Source: Escherichia phage phita32. From it: DNA of 64,000 nt. Location of the stretch: sequence record PQ758395; one strand, given 5' to 3'. This document shows, piece after piece, positions 2,529 through 62,449 of the stretch; positions within the stretch are counted from its first letter, which is position 1, and every line of letters starts with the position of its first letter. The position numbers were made by a program, and so were the translations under genes. The notes beneath the pieces are model-generated. The model was given only the letters and a program-made list of their open reading frames with translations, was not told where the DNA came from and did not search any database.

Positions 2529-2536
2529 CCTTTAAA

Positions 2537-2563
2537 GCCCCGCTTCGGCGGGGTTTATTTTTA
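2537..2563 (+). terminator. Intrinsic terminator (GCCCCGC-TTCG-GCGGGG + T-run)
   Basis: GC stem with TTCG tetraloop followed by TTTATTTTT immediately after the stop at 2528. Confidence 0.6.
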
Positions 2564-2633
2564 TGCTCAGATTGACTATTGTTACAAAATTTGGTAAAAT
2601 ACCTTGTAGAGATTTTCATACCGGAGGAGTGAC

Positions 2634-4124: not shown

Positions 4125-4135
4125 GGCGGCGAGAT

Positions 4136-4822: not shown

Positions 4823-6894
4823 TGGCAACAGCTGTTTTTAAACCTTACCGTGATTACTCTACAATGGCTGCACAGTTTCATTACCGAACAGTTCAGGATA
4901 CTGCCGTTCCTGGTAGGGATTATAATCATGTTGAGGGCGATGTAACTATCCCAATTGGGGCAACCAGTATTGAGATCCCAGTGGAAATTGTTGACAAATT
5001 ACCCAACAGGTTGCCAAGAAGCTTCTTTATGGAGTTTTCATCAAAATCCCAAGGGGTAATGATTGGAACACAAAGGGCGAAATGTACAATAGTTTCAGAT
5101 GAGAATCTCGACAGGATATCTTGGGATACTGTTGAGGAGAGAATGTTCCACCCAAGATATTGGGTTACAACTACTCAGCAGACTGAAAGTACCTGTATTG
5201 TTGCAGATAACAACTGTTGTATTAACCGTTTAGTGTCAAGAACATATGGGGGTATGGCTGGGTGCATTTGGGAAACAGTTGACAAGTATGACCATTTCGG
5301 CATTGGGTTTGATGATCACTATGAGATGAGAAACACCAAGCTTTGGTTCAGAATGTCAATAACCAACGCCAGCAACTTCTCCACTCCTGAAAAGATGATT
5401 ATGACTGTAGACCTTGTTGATGGCACAATCATCTATGTTCCTTTAGCTCAATATGCTGTCAGCATCTCAGAGGATAAGAATGTTGCAGAAATTCATATTG
5501 ATTTCGAGGACTGCGTCGGGATGGACCAGAACAACAACATGATGGGCGTTGATCCCCGACAGGTGAGAAGGATTCTAATACCCCTTATGCCTAAAGATTG
5601 GGTAAGTAATAGCACAGACCCAAGAACGGAAAATGTAGAGTGCGAGTTGCGTCTAGATCTGCTTCAGCCAGACACAGGTTGGAAAATGATGCAACTTAAC
5701 AATATCCAGGTGAAAGAGCACGACGTTGGGATCTGCACAGCATATGACGATATGTGGAACGTATCTCCTTTAAGGGTGTTGAGCAATATCAAGCGTCTGG
5801 GATATACCGGAACCATAAACCATTATGTGGGTATGAGTCATTATTATGACTACACATGGTCAGGAACTCAATGGTCTATAAACAGAACAGGGGCGCTAAA
5901 CGCTGCAGCTTATAAATGGCATGATGATTTTATGTACAATGCCAAACGACATAACTTCGACGTTATGCAGTCTGTAAGTTTTGAGCTTTACAGCGATGCC
6001 TGCCCGTTGGAATGGACCCAAAGAGACTGGAACGATAACTATGCTAAAACAGGGTATACACCTTGTAGCTACCTCCTGTCTCCAACCATTGAAGAGGGTA
6101 TGAATTTCCTTACTGCAGTATTTAAGAATTTTGCATCATCTGCTATGAGAAACAACCTGCCAGTGATTATGCAGATTGGTGAACCGTGGTGGTGGTTCAA
6201 TACCGATACTCGTAAGCCTTGTATTTATGACTACCCTACAAAACAAGCGTTTTATGATGAGACTGGTGAATATGCACTAGACATTGGGACTATTGACGAT
6301 CCTAAAACTGGCGGTGTTTATGACAAGTATGTAGCATTTTGTCGTGGTAAGCTTGGCGCTCGTATTGCGGCTATTTCAAAGGCAATAAAGGCACACGCTG
6401 CATCAGCTCAGATGACAGCTTTGCTGTTTTTCCCAACCATTATGGAAACCGAGCTTACGCAAAAGCTGAACCTTGCTGACCAATACAAAAAGGAAGCAGG
6501 AGCTCTTGATTTCTTCTGCACTGAGTGCTACGATTGGGTGATGCAGGGAGGTATTGAAAAGGCAAAAGAGTCTGTAAACATACCTATCGTTAAGTTAGGT
6601 TGGCAACCGTCTGAAATACAATACCTTGCAGGGTTCGTTCCTAGTAAAGAGCTTGCTCCGGTATATGGCTACGACCCAACTAGGAATTACCAAGAATTTT
6701 TATGGAGATGTATTTGCGGAAACATGGCAACTATAGAGTATAGATACCCTGAGGTAAAACAGTATGTGTGGGCATATCCGCAAGTAATGTCTGACAGCAT
6801 CACTGTTACCGCCAGAGATTCTACCGTGCTTCATATGGGGCAGGTTGCTCTGAAAGGGTATGTAGAAGATGTTGTCCCGCCAGACTTCTCATAA
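4822..6894 (+). CDS. Tail fibre-associated protein (690 aa) with N-terminal Ig/Calx-beta-like segment
   Basis: TAATG stop-start overlap with the upstream gene; N-terminal VEGDVTIPIGATSIEIPVEIVDK beta-sandwich-like motif; large Trp/Tyr-rich C-terminal domain. Confidence 0.4.
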   Translation: MATAVFKPYRDYSTMAAQFHYRTVQDTAVPGRDYNHVEGDVTIPIGATSIEIPVEIVDKLPNRLPRSFFMEFSSKSQGVMIGTQRAKCTIVSDENLDRISWDTVEERMFHPRYWVTTTQQTESTCIVADNNCCINRLVSRTYGGMAGCIWETVDKYDHFGIGFDDHYEMRNTKLWFRMSITNASNFSTPEKMIMTVDLVDGTIIYVPLAQYAVSISEDKNVAEIHIDFEDCVGMDQNNNMMGVDPRQVRRILIPLMPKDWVSNSTDPRTENVECELRLDLLQPDTGWKMMQLNNIQVKEHDVGICTAYDDMWNVSPLRVLSNIKRLGYTGTINHYVGMSHYYDYTWSGTQWSINRTGALNAAAYKWHDDFMYNAKRHNFDVMQSVSFELYSDACPLEWTQRDWNDNYAKTGYTPCSYLLSPTIEEGMNFLTAVFKNFASSAMRNNLPVIMQIGEPWWWFNTDTRKPCIYDYPTKQAFYDETGEYALDIGTIDDPKTGGVYDKYVAFCRGKLGARIAAISKAIKAHAASAQMTALLFFPTIMETELTQKLNLADQYKKEAGALDFFCTECYDWVMQGGIEKAKESVNIPIVKLGWQPSEIQYLAGFVPSKELAPVYGYDPTRNYQEFLWRCICGNMATIEYRYPEVKQYVWAYPQVMSDSITVTARDSTVLHMGQVALKGYVEDVVPPDFS

Positions 6895-6906
6895 TCAGGA
6901 GATAAA

Positions 6907-7947
6907 ATGTCAAAACCTAGTTTTCCATTAGAGATTTGGGCAGAGGAGGATCAGGTTCTGCCTAACACCCACAGACAGAACAGGCTACGCCCGATTGATG
7001 ATTTGTGGAGAAAAGGTTGGGATCTCGGTCAAAAGCCCTCATGTGAAGAACTTAACTATATTTTCAATATGCTCGGAACTTGGGCAAAATACATTGCTGA
7101 CGAGCAGATCCCAGCTCAAGAAGGCCGTTATCTGGTACGTGATAATAACTTGAGTGATCTTTTGAACATCCCTGTTGCCCGTAGAAACCTTGGGATTATT
7201 ACTAAGGAAGAGGCAGACGCCAGGTATGTAAAAGTTACAGGTGATACAATGACAGGCCCATTGGGTTTGCAACGTATCAACTTTAAAGCTGCCGAGACAG
7301 ATAAGGCTTGGATAGAGACAACTATTGGCCCAGATAAGACAACTCTCGACTTTGGGTTAAGTGATAATACCGGGTCGTTTGATGATGGTGGTACATCTAC
7401 AGTGGATGCGTTCCGTTGGAGATTCCAGCCAACTCAGCCGGATATTAATCCAGAGTTCACTTTGATGTACCTTAACGCGATCACGGCTAACCGTGCGCTG
7501 TTGAAAGTGGTAGGCAATGTTGAAGTTGTCGATAACATGAGGTGCAATAACCTTACTATCAGCAATACAGCGACATTCACCAACTGTAATGTGGCTAGTC
7601 AGTTGACGGCTGGGTCAGTGTATGTTAATGGTGGTGCAAGTTGTGACAGTATGGTTGTAAGAAGCCAGCACTGTGTTGTCGGTAACAGAAATGTGGTTCG
7701 CTCTGTGAACGGAGTGACGGCTAACGGTAACGGTGATGTAACGATCACTATCCCGCAGACAGGTGTGCAAGACATCAGAATCGGTGCAAGACTTGTGGAC
7801 GGAGTTTCTGAATCTCCAATCCGCAACGGCTACGTTGTCACAGGCTGGCATTTCGGTGACAAAAAAGAGATGCGTGGTTCAACCTACTGGGCAGGACCTT
7901 TACAAAAACTTGTAAATGGTCAATGGATCACTGTTAATTATGCATAG
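6907..7947 (+). CDS. Tail fibre protein, paralog A (346 aa)
   Basis: Shares N-terminus (PLxIWAxxDxVL..GW..) and C-terminal 14 aa (LQKLVNGQWIT-V/I-xYA) with the ORF at 8959..10005; central region differs. Confidence 0.5.
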   Translation: MSKPSFPLEIWAEEDQVLPNTHRQNRLRPIDDLWRKGWDLGQKPSCEELNYIFNMLGTWAKYIADEQIPAQEGRYLVRDNNLSDLLNIPVARRNLGIITKEEADARYVKVTGDTMTGPLGLQRINFKAAETDKAWIETTIGPDKTTLDFGLSDNTGSFDDGGTSTVDAFRWRFQPTQPDINPEFTLMYLNAITANRALLKVVGNVEVVDNMRCNNLTISNTATFTNCNVASQLTAGSVYVNGGASCDSMVVRSQHCVVGNRNVVRSVNGVTANGNGDVTITIPQTGVQDIRIGARLVDGVSESPIRNGYVVTGWHFGDKKEMRGSTYWAGPLQKLVNGQWITVNYA

Positions 7948-7961
7948 ATCGGAGGACTAGC

Positions 7962-8546
7962 ATGAAAATACTTCAAGAGTTTAAACTTTACCAACCGGGA
8001 TCTGGCGAATACCGCACCAACAAGGAAACCAAGGAGCTGACCCCTCAAGAGGTTGAGGATTACACAGCATACACTGGGTATTTTTTACGTAATGATGATG
8101 GCGATTGGTATGTGCAGTCACGAACATTGCGACAAGAAAATCCGGGTTGTATCTTCCTACTTGTTGACGAGAAGGGAATTCTTAAGACATCTACAGAAGA
8201 ACCTGATGCCTTATGGCCTGCTCCAGGTCTTCGTGTGGTTATCGCCAAAAAAGAAGAGGTACCAGAAAACATTATGCTTCACCACGACGCTTTGCGTTTA
8301 GTTGGTGATGAATTTGTCACAGACAATGAATTCTTTGTTCAACAGGCAGAGGGTGTCATAGAGACAGAACTTGCTTGGGCTACTGCTAGAATTGGTGCCT
8401 ATCAAGACATGATTGACCTTGAATATGATCTTACTGATGACCAGAAACGTAACATCAGAGATTTGAAAATGTACAGGGTAAAACTTCTTGAAATAGATAC
8501 ATCTAAAGCCCCTGACATTTTCTTCCCGGAGCGACCTACCCTCTAA
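7962..8546 (+). CDS. Putative tail fibre assembly/chaperone protein (194 aa)
   Basis: Small gene immediately downstream of a tail fibre gene, as is typical for Tfa-type chaperones; GGAGG RBS. Confidence 0.3.
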   Translation: MKILQEFKLYQPGSGEYRTNKETKELTPQEVEDYTAYTGYFLRNDDGDWYVQSRTLRQENPGCIFLLVDEKGILKTSTEEPDALWPAPGLRVVIAKKEEVPENIMLHHDALRLVGDEFVTDNEFFVQQAEGVIETELAWATARIGAYQDMIDLEYDLTDDQKRNIRDLKMYRVKLLEIDTSKAPDIFFPERPTL

Positions 8547-8557
8547 GAGGAGGTGTT

Positions 8558-8872
8558 GTGGAGTTGGATTTGGCGGCATTGTACGGTATCTGCATGGGTA
8601 CCGTTGTCCCGATCTGTGTATGGGCTTTCAACCAGTGGCACACCAAATGGAAAGGCATTTCCAAGAGGTTGGATGAACTGGAGAAAGACCTCATCTTAGT
8701 GAAAAACAGTATGGTTACAAAAGATAAACTTGATTCCGTTATCGAGACCCGGTTAAGCAAGCTAGAGGCCGATATTAACGACCTTAAGCAGGATGTCAGG
8801 ACAGATGTTTCCGGTATCCGAGCTGATGTACAAAAGATTTTGCACATGCTCGTAGAGCATAGTAAAAGGTAA
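8558..8872 (+). CDS. Membrane-anchored coiled-coil protein (104 aa)
   Basis: GTG start after AAGAGGAGG RBS; N-terminal hydrophobic helix then heptad coiled coil; topology resembles i-spanin-like or fibre-associated proteins. Confidence 0.3.
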   Translation: MELDLAALYGICMGTVVPICVWAFNQWHTKWKGISKRLDELEKDLILVKNSMVTKDKLDSVIETRLSKLEADINDLKQDVRTDVSGIRADVQKILHMLVEHSKR

Positions 8873-8958
8873 ACAAAGGTCAGAACGGAAAGGACTCCGT
8901 TCTTGCATTTTGTTCTCTAAAGTGTTAAAATATTCCTAAGGAATTTTCTCAGGAGAAC

Positions 8959-10005
8959 GTGATGACTAAACCAGTTATCCCTCTTGATATTTGGGCCAAT
9001 CAGGATGTTGTGCTTGAAAATACGGGAGAATTGAATAAGTCTCAACCGAAAAAAGAAGATAGATTGAGAGGTTGGGATATGACACAAAGAGTGGCATGTG
9101 AAGTTGTTAACTTTGAACTTCACATGCTTTCTGCGTGGTTAAAGCATTTAACAGAAGATGTTGTCCCAGGATGGGATAATAGATTCTTAAGGGTCACTAA
9201 TAATCTAGCAGACGTTCCAGACAAAGCTGCTGCACGTCAAGTTCTCAATGTATACTCGCCTGAAGAAATGGACGATCTATATATTGACAAGTCCGGAGAC
9301 ATAATGACTCAGACTCAAACTTTAGGTCTTCAAAGAATCGAGTTTGCATCTGCGTCAACAGACAATGCGGCAATATATACCACCATAACTCCAGACAAGA
9401 CGACGATGGATTTCTGGATTATGGACAACATCGGTGGTGCTGACGGCACAGACCTTGATGATCCTTCTCACCAAATAGACGGGTTCCGTTGGAGATTTCA
9501 ACCTTCGGGTGGGCAGCCTGTGTTTTCGGCTATGAAGCTCAATGCTATAACTGCCAACCGTGCAAGACTGGCTATCCAAGGAAATCTTGAATGCAACGAT
9601 GCAAAAAGTTCCTCTGCAAATGCCAATGCAGTCACGATACCAAGAGCCACTGTTAATGGACAACAATCCTGCGGAAGCGCTCAAATAGGTGGAAGAGTTG
9701 ATTGTAACGATGAAACCGTCAGGGGCCAATATGCAACAGTTGGTGGAAGAAACGTGGTCCGCAGGGTAAATGGTAACGGCGCAGACAGTAGTGGTAACCT
9801 TACTATTCCTATGCCTAGCAGAGGGGTTGATGATGTAAGGATAGCAAACCGTTTCAAAACCACCTACAGAGAGTCAAGAGTCTACCCTGGACATGTGATG
9901 TGCTCTGGTAACTACGCTTATAAACACCCTTATCAAGGTGACTACTGGACAGGTGCTATCCAAAAACTTGTAAATGGTCAATGGATCACTATATCTTATG
10001 CTTAA
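8959..10005 (+). CDS. Tail fibre protein, paralog B (348 aa)
   Basis: Paralog of 6907..7947 (shared termini); AGGAGAA RBS. Confidence 0.5.
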   Translation: MMTKPVIPLDIWANQDVVLENTGELNKSQPKKEDRLRGWDMTQRVACEVVNFELHMLSAWLKHLTEDVVPGWDNRFLRVTNNLADVPDKAAARQVLNVYSPEEMDDLYIDKSGDIMTQTQTLGLQRIEFASASTDNAAIYTTITPDKTTMDFWIMDNIGGADGTDLDDPSHQIDGFRWRFQPSGGQPVFSAMKLNAITANRARLAIQGNLECNDAKSSSANANAVTIPRATVNGQQSCGSAQIGGRVDCNDETVRGQYATVGGRNVVRRVNGNGADSSGNLTIPMPSRGVDDVRIANRFKTTYRESRVYPGHVMCSGNYAYKHPYQGDYWTGAIQKLVNGQWITISYA

Positions 10006-21226: not shown

Positions 21227-21460
21227 TTAATCTTCGTAGATCAGGATCTCTGATCTTGGTTTACGCGCTTTCAGGTCTAATTCTATCCAATGCACCATCG
21301 CAGTCTCAAGAAAAACAGCCTGAATGCACCCGTCTTCAACATGTCCCACCAGCATAACAAGATCTTCACCTTCATCATCTGCATCACGAACATACAGAAT
21401 CTCTCCAGCCTCAAAATCTTTCACAACCTGTTTGTTGGATACTTTCCGAATCTTTGTCAT
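21227..21460 (-). CDS. Small paralog family member 1 (77 aa)
   Basis: Shares M-T..(K)..G.VV...D....V.IV..........FDL pattern with the next three ORFs. Confidence 0.4.
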   Translation of the reverse strand: MTKIRKVSNKQVVKDFEAGEILYVRDADDEGEDLVMLVGHVEDGCIQAVFLETAMVHWIELDLKARKPRSEILIYED

Positions 21461-21461
21461 G

Positions 21462-21728
21462 TTAGAATCCTTCCAGGAAGCTCTTGTAGAAAATAATTTC
21501 AGTGTCTACACCTGTCACGATTTTATCGTTTCGGATCTCATCTGTGAGATAGGTGTCGAAACGTAGCACCTGTGTAGTATTGTCACACATCCACTCAGCT
21601 GTGACAATGGCGAAGATTTTCTCATCTTCATTATCTGGTGTAAATGTTACTACTTCACCACATTTAAATTTTTCAATAGTCTGAGTGTTAGCTTTTGGTT
21701 CTGCGATGGTGATTTTTGTGGTCATCAC
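21462..21728 (-). CDS. Small paralog family member 2 (88 aa)
   Basis: Tandem paralog (see 21227..21460). Confidence 0.4.
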   Translation of the reverse strand: MMTTKITIAEPKANTQTIEKFKCGEVVTFTPDNEDEKIFAIVTAEWMCDNTTQVLRFDTYLTDEIRNDKIVTGVDTEIIFYKSFLEGF

Positions 21729-21985
21729 TCTCCTCCTTCTTTCGAATAAGTCTCTCCAAGGATAGTAATTTTGGTGTCAAGCTCTGTAACTTTCATGTTT
21801 GGTGTCAGGTCGTACAATTCATTATTTTCTAAATCAAATCCCCACACACAATGTTCTCCTGTTTTGACAATCATAACTATGTTTTGAATGCCGTCTCCGT
21901 CGCAACTTACCACGGTCCCACACGGAAAACTATCTGCACGCTTTTTGTTCTTAACCTTAGAATTGAATACAATGCTAGTAGCCAT
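21725..21985 (-). CDS. Small paralog family member 3 (86 aa)
   Basis: Tandem paralog; overlapping stop/start. Confidence 0.4.
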   Translation of the reverse strand: MATSIVFNSKVKNKKRADSFPCGTVVSCDGDGIQNIVMIVKTGEHCVWGFDLENNELYDLTPNMKVTELDTKITILGETYSKEGGE

Positions 21986-22248
21986 TATTGTTCCTCCACC
22001 ATAACTTCGCCAAGAATTTCTATGCAGGCATCCATTTCTGTAACAACCAAACTGTGAGGTAGTTCTACAAACACCTTTCTGAACAGGTCAAATGCCCCAA
22101 CATATATGTTTGCAGGATGTGATTTTACAACAAGTGCTGTATTCACATCCCCAAGCTCATCAACAAACATCACCACAGTGCCTGGGGCTACTGAAGACAG
22201 GTACTTCTTAGTTTTACGGTTTGATGCAAATTTTAACTCTGTTGCCAT
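21985..22248 (-). CDS. Small paralog family member 4 (87 aa)
   Basis: Tandem paralog; ends ILGEV like member 3 (ILGET). Confidence 0.4.
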   Translation of the reverse strand: MATELKFASNRKTKKYLSSVAPGTVVMFVDELGDVNTALVVKSHPANIYVGAFDLFRKVFVELPHSLVVTEMDACIEILGEVMVEEQ

Positions 22249-22263
22249 AAATAATCTCCTCCT

Positions 22264-23724
22264 TTATTTAGCGTACTCGATTAATTCCACAGTTTTCCCA
22301 AAGCTAGGGATATAATTTTTATTATACCCTTCGGTGAGAACCCATAGAGTATCGTACTTTTTCCACTTGTTGTCAACAGCCTTTTGTTCAAAGTTATGCT
22401 CAAAGTATAGATCGGTCAGGACGATGACATCTTTTGCATTTGGTATGTTGGCATCCAGATACTCGAACACGCAAGCAGCTGTTGTGCCCCATGTTGAGTG
22501 GACCTCGTAGTTGATCATCTCATCTATGTTGCCGCGAGTGTATACTTTAACCTCTCCAACCTCAGTTGACCAACAGAACATTGTAACCTTAAACTCTTTA
22601 TACAGATTGCACAATCCGGTGATTTCATTGAACATTTTCTTTAAAGTTCTTTGAGAGATCGAGCCAGAAACGTCTAAAGCTACCACAATATCTATGGTGT
22701 TTTCCGGATTACGACCAGGAACAATAACGTGCTGGTTCTTGTTTATAGCCCCAACTTTTCGCATTGTGCTGGTCAAAGACCCAGATCGGCGACCAGGTTT
22801 TCTGTAGGTCAGTTCAGCCTTTCGTTTAGACAACATGCGTTGCTTAATGATGTCTATATAGTTGATTACAGGCTTACCCCTGTTCTTGACAAACTCACGC
22901 ACCGCCTCAGGGCAACGACCTCCGGAAGCTTGCATTGCTGCCTCCAGCATGTCGCCAGAGTCTTGCATGGCCTGATCTTTATCAGATTGGCTGATTACAG
23001 GTTGTGGCTGATCATACCCCATAGCCTTTCCAAGATCATCACTGGTGCCACCGTTCCCACTCATGTGATCATCTGTTTGTCGCTTATCCCCTTGAGAGTT
23101 CTCACCTTTACCGCTCTTACTTTTACCGTTATTCTGATCTCTTTGCTTATCAAGAACTGCATAGACGTTCTCAGCAATCCATCCATGAAACTTCATGTCG
23201 CAGTAGCAGCTGGCTAAGAAGCCAAAAGGCTTACCTTTTACGAACGTAGTGCTTTTCCCCTTCGGGAAGAAAACACAAGGAGGCTTGCTAAAGTCAACCA
23301 CAAGACCTGTGTTGATAACGTGATCACAAGCAATGTTGAACAGTTCCGGCTCAAAGCTTTTACCACGGACCAGGTGATCACAGATAATATGCCCCACCTC
23401 ATGTGACAGAAGAAAGGCCACCTCTTTCACAGATTTTGGGGAATAGAAAACCTCAGCCATCTCAAACTGCTTGTCAGTCAGAGATGCTTTAAGAATGGTT
23501 TTACGCTCATCTGCCAACCCCATAATGAACTCAGGGCTGTAGTAGATGCGTTTATGGTCTGTTGCCATAGTGGAGCACCATGTGTGGTTTTCTACGAACT
23601 GCAACCCTGACAACAGTGTGCCATAAAACGGCAGCTTTTCAAGAAGATACATGCGTGCTGCCTGCAGCATTCGCAAGGCGTCATCTTTTTGTGCGGCAAT
23701 GATTTCTGAACTTCTGCTATCCAT
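22264..23724 (-). CDS. VWA-domain protein with N-terminal HExxH metallopeptidase-like domain
   Basis: HEVGHIICDH zinc motif; VALDVSGSIS (VWA MIDAS-type DxSGS). Probable start is the ATG at 23724 (GGAG RBS) rather than the TTG at 23745, which lies inside a hairpin. Confidence 0.55.
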   Translation of the reverse strand: MDSRSSEIIAAQKDDALRMLQAARMYLLEKLPFYGTLLSGLQFVENHTWCSTMATDHKRIYYSPEFIMGLADERKTILKASLTDKQFEMAEVFYSPKSVKEVAFLLSHEVGHIICDHLVRGKSFEPELFNIACDHVINTGLVVDFSKPPCVFFPKGKSTTFVKGKPFGFLASCYCDMKFHGWIAENVYAVLDKQRDQNNGKSKSGKGENSQGDKRQTDDHMSGNGGTSDDLGKAMGYDQPQPVISQSDKDQAMQDSGDMLEAAMQASGGRCPEAVREFVKNRGKPVINYIDIIKQRMLSKRKAELTYRKPGRRSGSLTSTMRKVGAINKNQHVIVPGRNPENTIDIVVALDVSGSISQRTLKKMFNEITGLCNLYKEFKVTMFCWSTEVGEVKVYTRGNIDEMINYEVHSTWGTTAACVFEYLDANIPNAKDVIVLTDLYFEHNFEQKAVDNKWKKYDTLWVLTEGYNKNYIPSFGKTVELIEYAK

Positions 23725-23735
23725 TAAAACTCCAG

Positions 23736-23752
23736 AAGGGGCCAATGGCCCC
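23736..23752 (-). terminator. Intergenic hairpin (AGGGGCCAATGGCCCCT), partial terminator
   Basis: Perfect GC stem between two co-oriented minus-strand genes, followed on the minus strand by a T-containing tract. Confidence 0.35.
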
Positions 23753-23757
23753 TGTCA

Positions 23758-24747
23758 TTATTTAACGTGCTTGAAAATACCAGCCAACTCGGTCATTGTC
23801 ATGCGAGTGGTCTTCATAAGGTCTGTCATAGCCTTCTCCATAATTGGAGATACTACCATAAAGTTACCCTTGGTGAAACCTTTATTCCAGTCGGTCACTA
23901 ATAGTGGTTTAAGTCCGGCCCCGAGACGCTCACCAGTCAAAGCACAACATTTTCGGATGTATGTGCTCTTAAACTGGCTGAATGACAAGTCAACTTTCAT
24001 ACCTGCATCGTAGAACGTCTGGCAATAGAAAGTGTAAGCTTTGGCAATCTCAACATCGTCAGGCAGTGCAGGAACCTCTTCTGTGAGCTCTTCTTCGCCC
24101 CCTTGAGGCTCTTTTTCCTCTTCGTGATCCTGTTGCATCATTTCTTCAATCTCTTCTGTTACAGGCTCATTTACGATGTCAGAAATGTGCTTGTTGGCTC
24201 CACGATTAGCCATGAAGTTTTTAAAATCCCGCATTGGTGACATATCTTCCTCCCATTCTTCGTCAAAGAGTGCTAGTTTATCCTCTTCCGTTCCATATTG
24301 CAAGATGAAATCTTCAAAAGTGTAATCACCTTTCAATTTCTCCATACGCTCTTCGCTCAGGTGGAGCATCATCTGCTGGACAATTTTTCGATCAGTTTTG
24401 TCTTTAATCAAGACTGCGGTCTTTTTATCTACCAGACAGTCCTTTAGAGAGTTGCATCTCAATCCTACCACACAACAGTTATCAACCGCGTAAGGACCTT
24501 CATCATCTATCCGCTCTAGAGATGGGTAGAAAGGATTTCCCAGTCCGTTTTCATCTGTGTGCATGTCGAAAGGTATAAGGGTATAGTCGCATACCCCTTC
24601 TCCTAAAAGTTTTTTACCAAATAGGAGGTATTCTTCCCACGACAGGTTGAACTCTATATCTCGTTTCCGTGCATTATTCTGTTTGCGTCTATATTTTTTG
24701 AGCAGGCGCTCTAACTCTTCTGGTGTATAATATTTTTCAAGATTCAT
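23758..24747 (-). CDS. HNH-motif protein
   Basis: SLERIDDEGPYAVDNCCVVGLRCNSLK fits the HNH signature (..RID..xxY..DN....C..CN..K). The track start (TTG at 24813) overlaps a promoter, so the ATG at 24747 is preferred. Confidence 0.4.
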   Translation of the reverse strand: MNLEKYYTPEELERLLKKYRRKQNNARKRDIEFNLSWEEYLLFGKKLLGEGVCDYTLIPFDMHTDENGLGNPFYPSLERIDDEGPYAVDNCCVVGLRCNSLKDCLVDKKTAVLIKDKTDRKIVQQMMLHLSEERMEKLKGDYTFEDFILQYGTEEDKLALFDEEWEEDMSPMRDFKNFMANRGANKHISDIVNEPVTEEIEEMMQQDHEEEKEPQGGEEELTEEVPALPDDVEIAKAYTFYCQTFYDAGMKVDLSFSQFKSTYIRKCCALTGERLGAGLKPLLVTDWNKGFTKGNFMVVSPIMEKAMTDLMKTTRMTMTELAGIFKHVK

Positions 24748-24778
24748 GAGTTGTCTCTCGTGCTCTGTAAGTGAAGAA

Positions 24779-24807
24779 ATCGTATCAATTGTCTCAACAG
24801 ATGTCAA
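24779..24807 (-). promoter_or_regulatory. Sigma70-like promoter for the minus-strand operon
   Basis: TTGACA (minus strand) with about 17-nt spacer and TACGAT -10; back-to-back with the + strand promoter. Confidence 0.35.
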
Positions 24808-24820
24808 TATCAAAAACGTG

Positions 24821-24849
24821 TTGACTTTACTCTAAATATCCGATATAGT
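24821..24849 (+). promoter_or_regulatory. Sigma70-like promoter (TTGACT-N17-TATAGT)
   Basis: Near-consensus -35/-10 with 17-nt spacer, about 40 nt upstream of the ATG at 24890. Confidence 0.6.
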
Positions 24850-24889
24850 GCACCCATTCGAAAGAAAACTAACATAGGAGCACTCACTC

Positions 24890-25789
24890 ATGGCAAATCT
24901 TAACAGTTTTAGTACTCGGTGGCAACAGGATATAACAACCAATCTCTCAGCTGGAGATATTCTTTCTGCAATTTACGAGGCTTTGGATGCTAAAGCTACT
25001 TCAAAAGCGGTTTGTACCAACCCGCTAATCCCTATAGTGATGAAGGTGATTGAGCGTAGATTGGTATCTGGGTCTGATAAGTGGACATATTTAGATAATG
25101 AAGGACACACCTATTCCAATGGGTATGTCGATATAAAAGTAGAATACGCGGTATCATACCGCCGGAGCGGTTCTGTGACTTTCAACTTTTCTGGAGGTTT
25201 CCGATCTCTGGCAACTTCACCTTTTGTTTCCTCAGAAGAGAAGTTTGAACTTCCGTTCCTTTGGATGATGGCTAACGCGACAGGAAAAACCCCCGTGAGC
25301 ATTCGCGTAAAATACAACTACAACGGATCTAGTAAGATCTATGCCGAGAGTATCTCAGCAAGTTTTTATTTTGTGATGGGGGATGGAATCCTCAAACATA
25401 TAAAGATGTGCGATATGCATGATGTTATAAATGAAGTGACTGATAAGAATGTTCTGGTGAAGGACCTAAACAATTTCTATACACCTGGGGACTATTACGT
25501 CAACCGCCCACTGTGCATCTTTAATGCTGCACATCCTTTGGGTGAATACCTGATCGTTAATAGTGACATTGCTAACAACATTTTTGAACTGGCAAGAGTA
25601 CAAAATGAGGTATTGACATCCTGCAAGAGTGGTGATAAATTCACTGATGAAGAGATGGGTGTTTTAGAAATGATGGGGTATAAATGCAGTCTTTGGGTAG
25701 ATGAGGTGTTTAATGACTACATCTACGGACAGGATATTTACCCGTTAAAGAAGTATACTGATACAAGTTTAATTTATGCGGGGATTTGA
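24890..25789 (+). CDS. Hypothetical protein (299 aa)
   Basis: First gene of the + strand operon; GGAG RBS. Confidence 0.4.
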   Translation: MANLNSFSTRWQQDITTNLSAGDILSAIYEALDAKATSKAVCTNPLIPIVMKVIERRLVSGSDKWTYLDNEGHTYSNGYVDIKVEYAVSYRRSGSVTFNFSGGFRSLATSPFVSSEEKFELPFLWMMANATGKTPVSIRVKYNYNGSSKIYAESISASFYFVMGDGILKHIKMCDMHDVINEVTDKNVLVKDLNNFYTPGDYYVNRPLCIFNAAHPLGEYLIVNSDIANNIFELARVQNEVLTSCKSGDKFTDEEMGVLEMMGYKCSLWVDEVFNDYIYGQDIYPLKKYTDTSLIYAGI

Positions 25790-26064
25790 CTATGATGAAG
25801 GCATGTGGTAATGTATATTACGTCGGTGAGCATGTTCAGGCAGACAGTGTGTGGAAATCTATTAAGTCCACCACTGACGATGCCTTTCTGAGTGGACTAT
25901 GTTTCCCCAATCCGGGAGACATCCTCCCTCACCCTGGGGATTTTGTTGTCAACAAGATGGACGGTTATACCGTGTGCCTGATGGTTGAAAAAATCTTTTT
26001 AGACACTAGGCACAATCACCGTCTTGTGTTAAAATTTCAAGAATGTAAAATGACAATTGCCTAA
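25786..26064 (+). CDS. Hypothetical protein (92 aa)
   Basis: ORF, 4-nt overlap with the upstream gene. Confidence 0.35.
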   Translation: MTMMKACGNVYYVGEHVQADSVWKSIKSTTDDAFLSGLCFPNPGDILPHPGDFVVNKMDGYTVCLMVEKIFLDTRHNHRLVLKFQECKMTIA

Positions 26065-26077
26065 GGAGGCCTTACCT

Positions 26078-26434
26078 ATGTCTAAAGTTACTTATCGTGC
26101 AGCTATTTACTGCAATGAACACCCAATCAATAATGATGGTCACTGCCTTTTTAAAGAAAATCAGTTGGGCTGTATTGTCCTACCTGATGAAGGGGAAGGT
26201 TATCTGATTGCATTGACAGGGTTTGAGCCTGAAGCTCTGGAAGCCAATCTGGACTACCTGGTAGAAGAGGGTGCTGCAGACCTGGTTGCCAATGGCCTCT
26301 CCGTAAGCCTTGACGAAGTGGAGCGCTTCATGGGTAATTACCGTGTAGTGCGTGAGTTTACTATCGAGGTTGAAACTCCAGAGTGGGGCAGTCCTGAAAC
26401 TGATATCGAAGAAAAAGAAGAGGGGGTAGAATAA
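26078..26434 (+). CDS. Hypothetical acidic protein (about 118 aa)
   Basis: ATG at 26078 with AAGGAGG RBS at 8-nt spacing, preferred over the TTG at 26057. Confidence 0.4.
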   Translation: MSKVTYRAAIYCNEHPINNDGHCLFKENQLGCIVLPDEGEGYLIALTGFEPEALEANLDYLVEEGAADLVANGLSVSLDEVERFMGNYRVVREFTIEVETPEWGSPETDIEEKEEGVE

Positions 26435-26691
26435 TGAAAGTGCAGATCTTGACTAATGCCGAGAAGATGTTTATTGAAGATACACCTTTTGAAGCTGGTG
26501 AGCTACAGTTTGTTTATTTTGTTGACTTAGATAAGGTGTTTCCTGCACTGAATCTGGGTCTGGATGAAGTTCCTCATAAGGTTTTGTGCCAGGTTGTTCG
26601 TGCCTTAGCGGCAGATGGGGAGTTCCACACCCTTCAAGATATCCAGACCTACGGGTATCTTGAACTACAACGAGAAGAAGAGGTGGACTAA
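26434..26691 (+). CDS. Hypothetical protein (85 aa)
   Basis: ORF with overlapping stop/start. Confidence 0.35.
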   Translation: MKVQILTNAEKMFIEDTPFEAGELQFVYFVDLDKVFPALNLGLDEVPHKVLCQVVRALAADGEFHTLQDIQTYGYLELQREEEVD

Positions 26692-26693
26692 TA

Positions 26694-27074
26694 ATGGCCC
26701 GGTGGAAGACAACAGTTGACCTTCATGATCAGTGGTTAGGACGCATCACTGAAGACGGGAAACTAGTGGAGTGGGACAATAAGCATGTTAGCGAGTTGGC
26801 AAGTATTGTGGCTGGCAAGTTACGCTCCAAGTTCCCTGAACAACTGGATCCTGATAATCCAAAGTTCGATCCTGAGTTGGAGGATGTTGTATACTACTTC
26901 GATACTGTGGATGACTACGATGCGTGGTTTGCAGCACGGGAGCTTTACCCACAAGGATCTGCTATGCGCCAGATGGAAGAAGATTATCCTCCGTGCGAGC
27001 AATTCAATAGCGCAATGACTTGCCTCTACGATTGGGCAGATAAGAACCTTGTCTGGATTCGGACCGTATTCTAG
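26694..27074 (+). CDS. Hypothetical protein (126 aa)
   Basis: ORF, co-oriented. Confidence 0.35.
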   Translation: MARWKTTVDLHDQWLGRITEDGKLVEWDNKHVSELASIVAGKLRSKFPEQLDPDNPKFDPELEDVVYYFDTVDDYDAWFAARELYPQGSAMRQMEEDYPPCEQFNSAMTCLYDWADKNLVWIRTVF

Positions 27075-27080
27075 CAGGCG

Positions 27081-27383
27081 GTGGCAAGGATGCCACTTAA
27101 AAGAGTAATAAACATGTTATACCAGAAACACGAACTTTGTGTAGAAAAAGAGTTAAATTTTGACAAAGTTATCCACCGATATTGTTATGGGAAAACCAGA
27201 AGACAACTAAGAAGGTGTGCTCCAACATTCTTTCACCCCAGTAGACGGCTAAGTCCTGAAGAGGCGACAGCAGAAAGGGTTGCATACAACTGGGAAGTTG
27301 TGTACGATATTGACAGATCCGATGTGACATCTGTTTTGGAAAACTTTGAAAACACTTACACACAAGTAGAGGACTTTTACTAA
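27081..27383 (+). CDS. Hypothetical protein (100 aa)
   Basis: ORF (GTG start in track). Confidence 0.3.
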   Translation: MARMPLKRVINMLYQKHELCVEKELNFDKVIHRYCYGKTRRQLRRCAPTFFHPSRRLSPEEATAERVAYNWEVVYDIDRSDVTSVLENFENTYTQVEDFY

Positions 27384-28567
27384 TGTCAAGAAACGTATTT
27401 GAAAGTGGTCAAATCACTGTCCGTGAGTTGCCAGCTATCATTCAGTTTGCCCAGCGTCATAACCGATCTGTCCTGATTTTAGGACCAATGGGTGTGGGAA
27501 AGAGTCAGGTGATGAAGCAGATCGCTGATAATATGTTCGGTGAGCGAGATGACAACCTGGTTGACGTGCGGCTGTCAGATAAAGATCCTGCCGACTTATC
27601 TGGGCTACCTATCCCTGTAGAAGCGGATGGAACTACACGTACAGTGTTTGCAATTCCAGAATTTTGGCCTGCAGATCCGGACTGGAGCGGAATTATCTTT
27701 CTGGATGAGCTTACTCATGCAGATAACTACCTGCAAAAGGTTGCAATGCAAATTATGCTCGACCATAAGTGCGGCACCTATGCATTCCCTAAAGGCTCTG
27801 TTTTTGTGGCTGCGGGTAACCGTTCTACAGATGGTGCGGTTCTTTCGGCGCTCGAAGCTCCTCTGGCTAACCGCTTTATCATTGTAGAAGTTACAAGCAA
27901 TGCAGAGGTGTTTATTGAGGACTACGCATTCCTTAATGGGGTTCACTCCTCTGTAATTGGGTATCTGAAAAGAGTTCCATCAGCTATTGATAATTATGAG
28001 GCTATGGCTGAGATTAATTGTCCATCTTTTGCCACACCACGATCTTGGGTTGCTGCATCTGACATCTTGCACGATTTTGACAGCGGTATTATTTCTGACG
28101 CTATGGCCCGTGTTCTTCTGCAAGGTGCTATTGGTCACACTGCAGCGGTAGAGATCTGGACATACCACACCAAGAAACGCAATTTACCGGAAATCGGTCG
28201 GATTATGGCAGGTGGTTGCAAAGAATACGTAGGTCCTAAGCAGCCAGACATCTTGTGGATTCTTGGATCTGAAGGTTGTATCGCTATTCGCAATATGATG
28301 GAAAATGCAAGTATCTCCGACGAAGATCTTGTTAGCTGTGTGGCAAACTTCCTCGATTTCCTTTGGGAAAATTTCAAGGACGAGAACCGAGATTTTGTAT
28401 TCTCAGTCTTTATGGCGATGATGAAACCTAACGCCTTAGGAAATGCCTTGCTTATCGGTAAAGGGCGTGACAAGATCGTTGCTCAACTGATCAAAGCATA
28501 CCCAAACCTGATGAAGATTGTAAAAGAGTTTGGTGAAGAGTTTAGCGCCATTTTAGCTAAAGCTTGA
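27383..28567 (+). CDS. AAA+ ATPase (MoxR/AAA_5-like)
   Basis: Walker A LILGPMGVGKSQV; Walker B IIFLDELTHA; sensor/arginine region VAAGNRS. Confidence 0.6.
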   Translation: MSRNVFESGQITVRELPAIIQFAQRHNRSVLILGPMGVGKSQVMKQIADNMFGERDDNLVDVRLSDKDPADLSGLPIPVEADGTTRTVFAIPEFWPADPDWSGIIFLDELTHADNYLQKVAMQIMLDHKCGTYAFPKGSVFVAAGNRSTDGAVLSALEAPLANRFIIVEVTSNAEVFIEDYAFLNGVHSSVIGYLKRVPSAIDNYEAMAEINCPSFATPRSWVAASDILHDFDSGIISDAMARVLLQGAIGHTAAVEIWTYHTKKRNLPEIGRIMAGGCKEYVGPKQPDILWILGSEGCIAIRNMMENASISDEDLVSCVANFLDFLWENFKDENRDFVFSVFMAMMKPNALGNALLIGKGRDKIVAQLIKAYPNLMKIVKEFGEEFSAILAKA

Positions 28568-28576
28568 GGAGGTTGT

Positions 28577-28957
28577 ATGGCTAAAGTAGGTAAGCGGGGA
28601 AACTACCTGGTGGTATTGACCGAGGAGCCGGAGAAGGAGTACGAATGCAGCTCCACTTGCGTGATCGATATCCGAGAAAAGGATGTGGATGAAATCTGGT
28701 TTGAAATATTAGACGCTTGCGACAGCAGTGATTATTTCTTCATCTATGTCAACGATAAGGCTGGATTCTTCCATGACGACGGAGAGTTGCCATATGAAAT
28801 CTATGAACTTGTAGAGGCTTGCCATCGTGGAGATGCGGAGTTGTTTGGCCTACGGCTGAAAAGCGGTAAATTCTTCTATCAAGATGAGTGCATGAATCTT
28901 CATAACTTTGTAGAAGGAACTTGCAACGATGGAGAGATTTTGGCACACTACGATTAA
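28577..28957 (+). CDS. Hypothetical protein (126 aa)
   Basis: GGAGG RBS; terminator follows. Confidence 0.35.
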   Translation: MAKVGKRGNYLVVLTEEPEKEYECSSTCVIDIREKDVDEIWFEILDACDSSDYFFIYVNDKAGFFHDDGELPYEIYELVEACHRGDAELFGLRLKSGKFFYQDECMNLHNFVEGTCNDGEILAHYD

Positions 28958-28968
28958 TTTCTAAGACA

Positions 28969-28995
28969 CCCCCGCTTCGGCGGGGATTTTCTATT
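28969..28995 (+). terminator. Intrinsic terminator (CCCCGC-TTCG-GCGGGG + T-run)
   Basis: Same stem-loop type as at 2537; followed by ATTTTCTATTT. Confidence 0.6.
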
Positions 28996-29005
28996 TGGAG
29001 TTATT

Positions 29006-31495: not shown

Positions 31496-32701
31496 ATGAT
31501 TTTCATCTACGAACATTTCAAAACTCGTAAAGAAGCACGTGACCGCCGTGCAGAACTTGAGAAGAAGGGTTTCACATGTGCCATTGAGAAAGGTGATACA
31601 ACCTGGACACTGGCAGTTGGTGCCCCAGAGTTGTTCGATCCTGACCGTGACAGCGTCTGCTACACCCGTGAGGATTTTGAAACCCGCGAAGAGGCCCGTT
31701 TATTTCGATATGGGCTGGAAGATAACGGTAAGTACGCCATGATCTTAGACTTAGGCGAAGGTTCCGTTAAACGTTGGGGTGTGGTATACCCACTGTGCGT
31801 TGTTCACGGTGTGGGGTTCACTGGGGTAGCAATCAAGTCAGAAGAACCTTCAGTAGAAGTCAAAGATCCGGTGCTGCAGGTAGTAAGCAGTGTGTCTCAA
31901 CAACAGACTCGAAGCATAGAGCCTTTAGTAGTTATTTGTGGAGAACTTCTCCAGATCACCTGCAACGAAGGCATTTTTGAAATTCGCCGCAGCGAAAGTG
32001 AGGAAGTTTACCAGAAAGTCTTCGACCATATCTCTGTTCAGGAATATGACGAGGCAATTGGTGAAATCCTTGTCTGGTTGGAACGCAAGAATGAGTTCAC
32101 TACACTTGCAGACAACCTGATTATGAAAGATGGTAAGCTCTATTACTACGGTGTAGAGATGCAATCTACCATTGCAAAGAAAATTGAGGAAGATTATGTA
32201 GATGGAACACTGGACGACCGATATGTTAAATTCCTTGTCCGTCTGCTACGCAACCCGTCTGCAAAATCTGTGAACATGCTCTACGATTTCATGCAGGCTA
32301 ATGACATCCAGGTTGCAGAAGATGGTCGAATCATTTGCTATAAGGGGGTTCAGTTTAACGGAAGCAAGTGGGTGGATTGGCACAGCGGTAAAGTTCCACA
32401 ATACCAGGGTGCTTTTGTATCCATGCCTCGTAACTTTGTAGAAGATGATCCGGAAGCTGCGTGTTCTTATGGCCTGCACTGCGCCAGCAAAGAGTATGCA
32501 GCGGGCTATGGCACCGTAATGATGGTTATGGTTGACCCTGCGGATGTGGTTAGTGTGCCATACCAACACAACAGTGCTAAGTGCCGTGCATGCCGCTACG
32601 AAATCGTAGCAGCACCGGAATCACGCAAAGATGGCGATCCGATTGAATACGTAGTTGATCGTGACGGTAACACTATCGACATTCTTTACGAGGAGGCGTA
32701 A
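31496..32701 (+). CDS. Hypothetical protein (about 401 aa)
   Basis: ATG at 31496 with AAGGAGA RBS right after the upstream stop; the track start at 31460 overlaps the upstream gene. Confidence 0.4.
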   Translation: MIFIYEHFKTRKEARDRRAELEKKGFTCAIEKGDTTWTLAVGAPELFDPDRDSVCYTREDFETREEARLFRYGLEDNGKYAMILDLGEGSVKRWGVVYPLCVVHGVGFTGVAIKSEEPSVEVKDPVLQVVSSVSQQQTRSIEPLVVICGELLQITCNEGIFEIRRSESEEVYQKVFDHISVQEYDEAIGEILVWLERKNEFTTLADNLIMKDGKLYYYGVEMQSTIAKKIEEDYVDGTLDDRYVKFLVRLLRNPSAKSVNMLYDFMQANDIQVAEDGRIICYKGVQFNGSKWVDWHSGKVPQYQGAFVSMPRNFVEDDPEAACSYGLHCASKEYAAGYGTVMMVMVDPADVVSVPYQHNSAKCRACRYEIVAAPESRKDGDPIEYVVDRDGNTIDILYEEA

Positions 32702-34071
32702 TGGAAAAGGGGCAGTATGATGTAGGCACAGATGCTGCCCTCGTTGCAATCATGAGCGGTGAGAATGTCTTCGTTTCAGGACCCGCAGGTTGTGGGAAGA
32801 CGTACCTCATCAACATGATCCAGTCAATGTATGGAGACTCTTGCATAACGGTTGCCCCGACAGGGGTAGCCGCTTTAAACGTTAATGGAGCAACAGCACA
32901 CCGAACCTTCGATCTTGCAGCAGGTGTGAGCATGGAGTCAGACTGGACCGCAATAAGGGCAAAAACAGCAAAGCCTTTGAAGAGCAAGGCATTTACCATC
33001 TTAATTATCGATGAAATCTCTATGATCCGTGCTGATAAGTTTATAGAGATGGATAGGAAACTCCGCTTCCTTCGAAAAAATGACAAACCTTTCGGAGGCA
33101 TACAGGTCATATTGTTTGGCGATTTTTACCAGGCACCTCCTGTTGTCTCTTCTATGGAGAAGGAAGCCTACTTCAACTTCTACCATACGGACTTGTGTTG
33201 CTATACCGAATCTTGGAAAGAGCTTGACCTCCACAACATAGCCCTAATAGATCAGTTCCGACAGGAGTCTATTCGATTTGCCACAATGCTTAACTGTGTT
33301 CGTGAGGGTCGTCGCATAAAAGAGGTTGTAGCAGAGCTTAATGCTCACTGTTACAAAGGTGGTGTACCAACAGACGCTCTCACAATTTGCGCCACCAACA
33401 AACAAGCAGAGGAAGTGAACAGAAGGTTCTATGATGCCATCAACGCCCCAGAGAAGGTATACACTGGTGAAATGAAGGGTAAGTTTCCCTCCACCCTGCC
33501 AGTTGAGCAGGAGATGAAGTTGAAAATTGGCATGAAAGTTATGATAACCGCCAATGATGTTGACCCGACGCACAAAGTACCTTATTATGTTAACGGAACA
33601 CGTGCCACAATTGTTAAATTTAAGAACAAGGCAGTGGTGGTAGAGCTTGAAGATGGAACACAGGTTGACATAGAGCAGAGGTTGTGGGAGAATAACGAGT
33701 ATAAGCCCTCTCAGAGATACAACATTGCAGAAAGGAAGATGGAGAAGTTTATAGAGAGGGTAGTGATTGGGTCATACAAGCAACTTCCTCTGAAATCTGG
33801 GTATGCCGTAACATCTCATAAAAGTCAAGGACTTACGCTAGATTGTTACAACCTAGACCTTGGAAAGAACGGAGCTTTCTCTCCTGGGATGACGTATGTT
33901 GCTTTGAGTCGAGTTAAGACAATACAAGGAATAAACTTGTTGCGTCCACTAAGAGAAGTTGACATTATTGTTGACCCGCGAGTCGTAGAGTTTTACAATA
34001 CAACATTCCCTGACTTAGACAAAATTGTCAGGAAAGATTTTGAAACCAGAGCAGAAGAGGGGGACGTATGA
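32701..34071 (+). CDS. Superfamily-1 DNA helicase (Pif1/RecD/Dda-like)
   Basis: Walker A SGPAGCGKT; Walker B ILIIDEISM; C-terminal YAVTSHKSQGLTLD (SF1 motif VI). Confidence 0.6.
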   Translation: MEKGQYDVGTDAALVAIMSGENVFVSGPAGCGKTYLINMIQSMYGDSCITVAPTGVAALNVNGATAHRTFDLAAGVSMESDWTAIRAKTAKPLKSKAFTILIIDEISMIRADKFIEMDRKLRFLRKNDKPFGGIQVILFGDFYQAPPVVSSMEKEAYFNFYHTDLCCYTESWKELDLHNIALIDQFRQESIRFATMLNCVREGRRIKEVVAELNAHCYKGGVPTDALTICATNKQAEEVNRRFYDAINAPEKVYTGEMKGKFPSTLPVEQEMKLKIGMKVMITANDVDPTHKVPYYVNGTRATIVKFKNKAVVVELEDGTQVDIEQRLWENNEYKPSQRYNIAERKMEKFIERVVIGSYKQLPLKSGYAVTSHKSQGLTLDCYNLDLGKNGAFSPGMTYVALSRVKTIQGINLLRPLREVDIIVDPRVVEFYNTTFPDLDKIVRKDFETRAEEGDV

Positions 34072-62403: not shown

Positions 62404-62421
62404 TTTTTTAACTGAATTATC

Positions 62422-62448
62422 AAGGGGCTTAAAGCCCCTTTCTTTTTG
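62422..62448 (+). terminator. Intrinsic terminator (AAGGGGCTT-AAA-GCCCCTT + T-run)
   Basis: Ends the + strand early-gene array. Confidence 0.65.
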
Positions 62449-62449
62449 T

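Follow-up and report, generated by a model that had tools for sequence, protein, structure and literature searches.

A MoxR-class ATPase and a putative VWA/metallopeptidase encoded head-to-head in Escherichia phage phita32: a split gene pair with a probable counter-defence role

Whether two phage genes that lie on opposite strands and in separate transcription units can belong to one functional module, and on what such a module would act, is the question raised by a locus of Escherichia phage phita32. We analyzed a stretch of 64,000 nucleotides of this genome (PQ758395; the whole stretch is hereafter called the window), which belongs to a Vequintavirus (rV5-like coliphage). The minus strand carries a gene encoding a VWA protein with a putative metallopeptidase domain (VWA/peptidase; 22264-23724), and the plus strand carries a gene encoding a MoxR-class (AAA_5 clade) AAA+ ATPase (27383-28567). 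An initial annotation made from the sequence had placed the two genes at these positions, and both open reading frames, together with the motif HEVGHIICDH at residues 108-117 of the VWA/peptidase protein, were found there. In the explanation that we favor, with a probability of roughly 0.6, the two proteins are the rV5-group orthologues of the N4 gp24/gp25 module, consisting of a MoxR-class motor and its cognate VWA-zincin partner, which together counter a defence target. The two proteins probably work together.

The feature itself is already known. In GenBank records of relatives, the ATPase gene is named "MoxR ATPase" and the VWA/peptidase gene "putative metallopeptidase", and the 2013 paper on rV5 listed gp4 as "MoxR - ATPase" and gp12 as "CHP, DUF2201_N", a conserved hypothetical protein. 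The pair type was published by Iyer, Anantharaman, Krishnan, Burroughs & Aravind (2021), who described a MoxR-vWA chaperone/cochaperone pair of jumbo phages with an N-terminal metallopeptidase on the vWA protein, and a function of the ATPase was reported in the HIDEN-SEQ preprint (bioRxiv 10.1101/2025.11.20.689424). As a discovery from the window, the locus thus offers little that goes beyond these annotations and the two reports of 2021 and 2025. The new points are modest: rV5 gp4/gp12 is explicitly recognized as a split N4 gp24/gp25 module, the head-to-head split is assigned to one clade, and a conditional-fitness signal of the partner gene, unremarked by the authors of the preprint, is pointed out.

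The 7-kb region around both genes showed 94-96% identity to more than 110 Vequintavirus coliphage genomes, and more than 110 phage records contained the two proteins with amino-acid identities of 94-100%. The ratios of nonsynonymous to synonymous substitution rates (dN/dS) relative to relatives were 0.008-0.08 for both genes. These comparisons indicate two genuine genes on which purifying selection acts strongly.

The ATPase gene encodes 394 amino acids and is the orthologue of rV5 gp4, Bas54 bas54_0063, and N4 gp24. The Walker A motif, GPMGVGKS (residues 34-41; 27482-27505, plus strand), and the Walker B motif, IFLDEL (27692-27709, plus strand), were examined in an alignment of 45 homologues, where G37, G39, K40, and S41 of the former and D108 and E109 of the latter were invariant, as were N146 at the sensor 1 position, R164 (in LANRF) at the arginine-finger position, and R220 at the sensor 2 position. 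Single-sequence searches of Pfam, NCBIfam, and PDB (phmmer) with the ATPase yielded P-loop-level matches only. Homologues with 31-36% identity (E of about 1e-45) carry AAA_3/AAA_5 (PF07726/PF07728), so that the membership of the phita32 protein is transitive rather than direct. A profile of 45 members of the family matched midasin AAA modules with an E of 5e-11 from Walker A through the arginine finger, and the nearest solved folds to the structural model were CbbQ and NorQ. The model contained the helix-2 beta-hairpin insert (after beta2) and the pre-sensor-1 hairpin of the MoxR/dynein/midasin fold, and predicted an extra C-terminal helical region of about 110 amino acids. By way of the homologues, the profile, the predicted fold, and the invariant residues, the protein is indirectly established as a divergent member of the MoxR/dynein/midasin (AAA_5) clade, and the MoxR/AAA_5 call of the initial annotation holds on this footing, with a sub-threshold Pfam score of its own.

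The VWA/peptidase gene encodes 486 amino acids from an ATG codon (a TTG seven codons upstream, as an alternative start, would extend it to 23745) and is the orthologue of rV5 gp12, Bas54 bas54_0055, and N4 gp25. Its product is laid out as a zincin-like DUF2201_N domain (residues about 1-330) containing a low-complexity linker (about 200-228), followed by a C-terminal VWA domain (about 340-486). In Pfam, both domains exceeded the curated cut-offs in the order of the family, with DUF2201_N (PF13203) matching residues about 1-314 (E 2.9e-28; 99.7 bits, cut-off 23.2) and the DUF2201 VWA-like domain (PF09967) matching residues 346-481 (E 3.5e-11; 43.8 bits, cut-off 26.4). The codons of HEVGHIICDH (23374-23403, minus strand) encode a putative HExxH zinc-binding/catalytic helix; across 28 aligned homologues, the most distant at 24% identity, H108 and H112 were invariant, E109 and H117 were at least 90% conserved, and N130, A132, D134, and N138 were likewise invariant. 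H117 and D134 are candidates for the third zinc ligand. Against M48 and SprT-like families, the N-terminal domain gave sub-threshold matches only, confined to the active-site helix (E 0.0014-0.3 and 0.00078, respectively), and a literature search on DUF2201 found no characterized member. In the C-terminal domain, DVSGS (residues 351-355; 22660-22674, minus strand) aligned with the DxSxS of the MIDAS metal site, and D351, S353, S355, T414, and D438 were invariant in the same alignment, completing the MIDAS motif (DxSxS...T...D) of a VWA fold. The VWA and HExxH assignments of the initial annotation are therefore borne out by the two above-cut-off domains, the invariant HExxH motif, and the intact MIDAS, and the N-terminal domain is likely a zincin-like metallopeptidase, as judged from its Pfam family and motif conservation.

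Two annotation problems concern this gene. PHROGs (phrog_1314 and phrog_3118) and many RefSeq records give the label "HNH endonuclease" to both the VWA/peptidase and the Srd-like (23758-24813, minus strand) proteins, while searches of Pfam and NCBIfam with the VWA/peptidase protein at E <= 0.01-0.1 yielded no match to an HNH family; the label seems to be a mis-annotation propagated from an old "putative HNH endonuclease" BLAST match. The rV5 reference annotation divides the gene into gp12 (441 amino acids) and an overlapping gp13 (81 amino acids), and the intact 486-amino-acid frame is present in phita32 and other relatives. The division, which shortens the VWA domain, probably stems from a frameshift or from a sequencing error in the reference.

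To describe the pairing across lineages, 90 loci from GenBank phages, IMG/VR, and metagenomes were surveyed, 87 of which had enough upstream DNA. Of these 87 loci, 86 encoded an ATPase of the same family no more than 10 kb upstream of the VWA gene. The two genes were on the same strand in 66, with gaps of 5 bp to 8.6 kb, and head-to-head in 20, which were solely Vequintavirus/Seunavirus-like and had the genes 3.5-5.3 kb apart; the ATPase gene was upstream of the VWA gene in every same-strand locus surveyed (69/69). When counted by lineage (n = 16), the genes were adjacent in 12 and divergent at 3.5-5.3 kb in three, and one lineage, represented by locus L018, had no ATPase gene within 10 kb. 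Adjacent pairs were found in Certrevirus CR9 of the same subfamily (70-bp gap), in phAPEC6, in RaK2, where the genes are annotated "gp24-like" and "gp25-like", and in the N4-like phage St11Ph5 (gp24/gp25). Three further distant homologues, on a 578-kb contig, in an NCBI assembly, and on an N4-like contig, also had the ATPase gene immediately upstream. By tblastn, the ATPase was detected in 725 and the VWA/peptidase in 820 phage records with nearly matching genus counts, suggesting that the phyletic distributions of the two are nearly identical and that the pair is present in more than 700 phage genomes. All-against-all clustering of neighboring open reading frames at 91 loci yielded no universal third component; the recurrent neighbors were FEN exonuclease, thymidylate synthase, HD hydrolase, and proteins of unknown function.

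Because the VWA gene of other lineages is preceded on its own strand by a member of the same ATPase family, these comparisons strongly support the reading of the phita32 genes as a split pair, in agreement with the initial annotation, which had described the pair as split across a divergent promoter region at 24.8 kb. A single inversion of the block from the promoter to the ATPase gene, relative to the VWA gene, would have produced the head-to-head layout and kept co-expression through the shared promoter region.

Three loci deserve separate mention. L018, a 136-kb IMG/VR contig, encodes the VWA/peptidase (46% identity) with no ATPase within 10 kb, and L091, a 70-kb Logan contig, encodes the ATPase (59% identity) after tail genes and before HNH-rIIA-rIIB-helicase genes, with no VWA gene within 10 kb. 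These contigs, for which no GenBank phage relative was found, may represent a lineage in which the pair is more than 10 kb apart. On L092 (the 578-kb metagenomic phage-like contig; positions 1-9434), the pair lies among proteostasis genes (HSP20, ClpS, and ClpP protease) and a T4-type RNA ligase gene, and the ATPase carries an insertion of about 100 amino acids.

In phita32, the two genes flank, head-to-head, a 76-bp gap at 24.8 kb. A consensus scan predicted back-to-back sigma70-like promoters there (24779-24849, both strands): TTGACA-17-TACGAT with an extended TG on the minus strand (24807-24779) and TTGACT-17-TATAGT on the plus strand (24821-24849), with the -35 hexamers 13 bp apart. This element is the counterpart of the bidirectional promoter described in rV5, where it separates genes 10 and 11. 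In the minus-strand unit, an Srd-like gene comes first and the VWA/peptidase gene second; the ATPase gene occupies seventh place in the plus-strand unit. Since the two units begin at back-to-back promoters of this predicted type, co-expression of the two genes is plausible; a literature search for Vequintavirus transcriptomics found nothing usable. The open reading frame directly upstream of the ATPase gene (27081-27383, plus strand; 100 amino acids, or 89 from the annotated start) has a stop codon overlapping the ATPase start codon (ATGA), which suggests translational coupling. It carries the PHROG 13164 label "ATPase", yet it has no Pfam match, and its homologues were found in Vequintavirus loci only.

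The function of the pair can be approached through Bas54 (Escherichia phage MaxBurger, MZ501093), whose genes, like rV5 gp4/gp12, are the same as those of phita32 with no substantive difference: bas54_0063 is identical to the phita32 ATPase at 393 of 394 residues and bas54_0055 to the VWA/peptidase at 477 of 486, with shared synteny. In the HIDEN-SEQ preprint, which reports a saturated transposon library of Bas54, 60 of 64 TA sites in bas54_0063 and 81 of 86 in bas54_0055 were disrupted on Escherichia coli K-12 (10.1101/2025.11.20.689424), and both genes are thus dispensable on this host. On the uropathogenic clinical isolate CFE311, which carries the predicted two-gene defence system DS-28, bas54_0063 and bas54_0140, encoding a 99-amino-acid protein of unknown function, were needed to overcome DS-28, as confirmed by knockouts on cloned DS-28 (10.1101/2025.11.20.689424). 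In the resampling table of the preprint for K-12 versus CFE311, the log2 fold change was -7.23 for bas54_0063 and -2.20 for bas54_0055 (p 0.0009; adjusted p 0.00896). The latter was among only 27 genes significantly depleted on CFE311, and the flanking genes 0054, 0056-0062, and 0064 were unaffected, including the Srd-like orthologue beside bas54_0055 and bas54_0062, the orthologue of the 27081-27383 open reading frame, in which insertions were neutral. The text of the preprint does not mention the depletion of bas54_0055 and does not treat the two genes as partners. This depletion provides independent, weaker support for a role shared with the ATPase. Among PADLOC models, the VWA/peptidase had no match and the ATPase had P-loop-level matches only (E > 5e-4), and a second phage Tn-seq preprint contained no data on the ATPase-VWA family.

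The DNA helicase gene downstream of rIIB (32701-34071, plus strand) was also conspicuous in these data: its orthologue bas54_0068 is non-essential on K-12 and had a log2 fold change of -6.32 on CFE311, which adds a third conditionally required gene to the plus-strand unit; the text of the preprint does not discuss it.

We propose the following mode of action. The ATPase hexamer would dock the VWA protein in the way NorQ docks NorD, for which there is a precedent in the cryo-electron microscopy structure of NorQD, where the VWA domain is inserted like a plug into the pore formed by the MoxR hexamer. The MIDAS site, the peptidase domain, or both would then capture a protein target, either a component of DS-28 or something sensed by DS-28, and remodelling powered by ATP, probably in combination with cleavage by the HExxH domain, would neutralize the target early in infection. 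The suggestion of the initial annotation that the pair remodels or degrades a host or phage target fits the anti-defence role of the orthologous ATPase and the depletion of the VWA gene on CFE311, while the proteolytic part of it is a proposal.

The phita32 pair was compared with its closest known counterparts. N4 gp24 (AAA ATPase) and gp25 (vWFA), with the ATPase gene upstream, are homologous to the phita32 proteins (tblastn E of 3e-19 and 4e-15 to St11Ph5 gp24 and gp25, respectively) and belong to the 14 genes that make up the core of N4-like phages (Schitoviridae), where they are middle genes of unassigned function, sited among middle and nucleotide-metabolism genes near rIIA/rIIB. In contrast to the phita32 pair, the N4-like genes are adjacent (11-bp gap) and co-directional, and their products share only about 22-24% identity with the phita32 proteins. 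The jumbo-phage pair of Iyer et al. (2021) has the identical domain architecture, and its RaK2/phAPEC6-type members are direct homologues of the phita32 pair, but its genes are adjacent whereas those of phita32 are split. NorQ/NorD, like CbbQ/CbbO and RavA/ViaA, combine an AAA_5-clade ATPase with a MIDAS-bearing VWA partner; the bacterial partners of the NorQ/NorD type are devoid of a peptidase domain and serve to insert metals or activate enzymes, and the phita32 ATPase has its extra C-terminal helical region. FtsH-type AAA+ zinc metalloproteases, in which an AAA+ motor and an HExxH zincin remodel and cleave substrates, are a functional analogy only: FtsH belongs to a different AAA+ clade and is one membrane-anchored polypeptide, whereas the phita32 proteins would be two soluble proteins bridged by the VWA domain. 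Acidianus two-tailed virus p618 (MoxR) and p892 (VWA), compared by description only, form another virus-encoded MoxR-VWA couple, but they belong to an archaeal virus, have no peptidase domain, and act in extracellular tail development.

Several observations weigh against a joint counter-defence action of the two proteins. Taken alone, the ATPase fell below every Pfam and NCBIfam cut-off (AAA_5, 16.7 bits versus 22; no AAA_3 match was listed). Fold searches with the whole VWA/peptidase model returned VWA matches only and no solved relative of the N-terminal domain, the peptidase activity of which is a prediction. A NorD-like "finger" was not evident in the compact VWA model, and the physical interaction of the ATPase with the VWA protein is a proposal by analogy. 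Depletion on CFE311 was about 4.6-fold for the VWA gene versus more than 100-fold for the ATPase gene, and the second anti-DS-28 gene of the preprint is bas54_0140, not bas54_0055 (10.1101/2025.11.20.689424). CFE311 has other defences, such as Gao_Tmn, and the effect on the VWA gene may not stem from DS-28. In addition, sheet S6 of Extended Data Table 8 ("resampling_K-12_vs_CFE303") contains the CFE311 console line and numbers and is identical to sheet S7, so that the host specificity of the VWA effect could not be checked.

The alternative that best withstands the evidence, although we regard it as rather unlikely, is that the ATPase counters DS-28 without the VWA/peptidase, for example together with bas54_0140, and that the VWA/peptidase drifted to a separate role after the two genes were separated. 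It agrees with the naming of bas54_0063 and bas54_0140 as the DS-28 counter-genes in the preprint, with the far smaller depletion of the VWA gene on CFE311, with the separate transcription units in phita32, and with the fact that at least one lineage seems to have the two genes more than 10 kb apart. It is at odds with the strict co-occurrence and adjacency everywhere else, with the retention of all motifs and a low dN/dS in both genes after the split, and with the presence of bas54_0055 among the few genes depleted on CFE311 while its neighbors were neutral. Homologues of bas54_0140 were found in Vequintavirus only (117 records, all at least 89% identical; the phita32 equivalent lies about 1.9 kb past the end of the window), and since the pair occurs in 700-800 records, bas54_0140 cannot be its general partner.

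A joint counter-defence action is also preferred to a role of the pair as a virion-assembly chaperone/protease, which was proposed for the jumbo-phage MoxR-vWA proteins by analogy with Acidianus two-tailed virus (Iyer et al., 2021) and which we consider improbable for phita32. In phAPEC6 (MK817115, 200065-202889), the MoxR ATPase gp265c was detected in purified virions by mass spectrometry (six peptides, 19% coverage), and the ATPase gene adjoins structural genes in phAPEC6 and in locus L091. However, the virion list of phAPEC6 includes thymidylate synthase, suggesting carry-over of abundant non-structural proteins, and does not include the VWA partner gp264c. In Bas54, 94% of the TA sites in both genes were hit on K-12, and the products are accordingly unneeded for infectious virions; we down-weighted the virion-assembly role because of this non-essentiality. 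The N4 homologues are middle genes, and both phita32 units begin at the sigma70-like promoters among early and replication genes.

Slightly less probable still is a function in metal-cofactor insertion or enzyme maturation for a phage or host metalloenzyme, of the kind served by NorQ/NorD, CoxD/E, CbbQ/O, and the CobS/T and BchI/D chelatase subunits. This is the best-documented activity of MoxR-VWA couples, CbbQ and NorQ are the nearest structural neighbors of the ATPase, and genes of nucleotide metabolism (such as those for thymidylate synthase, dCTP deaminase, and FEN exonuclease) are frequent neighbors of the pair. However, those systems lack any equivalent of the invariant HExxH domain, and the clustered neighbors included neither a chelatase large subunit nor a metalloenzyme with consistent linkage. 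In addition, the genes are dispensable on K-12 and conditionally required on a defence-carrying host. Finally, that the ATPase comes from an unrelated AAA+/P-loop family (clamp loader, Clp/Hsp100, or packaging) and lies near the VWA gene by coincidence is hardly credible in view of the AAA_3/AAA_5 domains of homologues at E 1e-45, the two hairpins of the model, and the VWA linkage across 16 lineages; a clamp-loader or packaging identity without a VWA partner, which the initial annotation had named as the outcome that would speak against it, was ruled out by the CbbQ/NorQ fold likeness, the midasin profile match from Walker A to the arginine finger, and that linkage.

The surroundings of the pair yielded additional observations. 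The Srd-like "anti-sigma factor" gene (23758-24747, minus strand), recognized by PHROG matches to Srd and sigma70-decoy families and called an Srd homologue in rV5 (gp11), lies directly upstream of the VWA/peptidase gene and precedes the VWA gene in all split lineages; it is treated here as context of the module. Between its stop codon and the ribosome-binding site of the VWA/peptidase gene lies a perfect 7-bp GC-rich hairpin, AGGGGCC-AAT-GGCCCCT (23737-23753). It could be an attenuator or processing site; as a regulatory element it was rejected, with an insignificant fold z-score of -1.64 versus shuffled sequence. Directly downstream of the VWA/peptidase gene, four consecutive small genes (21227-22248, minus strand; 77-88 amino acids) resemble an array of tandem paralogues, with 38% identity for the first two products and 18-19% for the others; none of their Bas54 orthologues is essential. 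At the head of the plus-strand unit, the gene at 24890-25789 is named "putative alpha 1-3 fucosyltransferase" in many records, yet it has no Pfam or NCBIfam match and a PHROG without function.

Farther away, at about 62000-64000, the GC content falls to 0.38 and the skew is flat. This region aligns to a non-coding stretch of about 2.5 kb between bas54_0134 and bas54_0135 in which no transposon insertions were tolerated, and it may serve as an origin of replication or as a different essential cis element. Among the database relatives, sixteen GenBank MG0656xx "Campylobacter phage" records labelled with C. jejuni as the host, which matched positions 22000-29000, were 94-99% identical to the phita32-type E. 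coli Vequintavirus; their hosts are likely mislabelled, or the records represent coliphage contamination.

Among gene couples of large lytic phages that have no assigned mechanism, the ATPase and the VWA/peptidase form one of the most widespread, being core in N4-like phages and also present in rV5-like, RaK2-like, PA5oct-like, and many marine phages. Because the pair is naturally split in rV5-like phages, each gene can be deleted separately there without a polar effect on the other. If both proteins act together, they would represent a mechanistically new class of anti-defence factors, that of a remodeller/protease driven by ATP, and a function would be given to hundreds of genes now mis-annotated as "HNH endonuclease" or listed as "hypothetical". 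More tentatively, and with considerable doubt, the N4 gp24/gp25-type module may serve large virulent phages in general as a counter-defence machine powered by ATP, in which the VWA/MIDAS adaptor would seize a host immune protein, the motor and peptidase would unfold and cut it, and small lineage-specific proteins such as bas54_0140 would give target specificity. If so, it would be the first AAA+-driven anti-defence protease, and its generality would explain the core status of the pair in Schitoviridae and its presence in more than 700 phage genomes.

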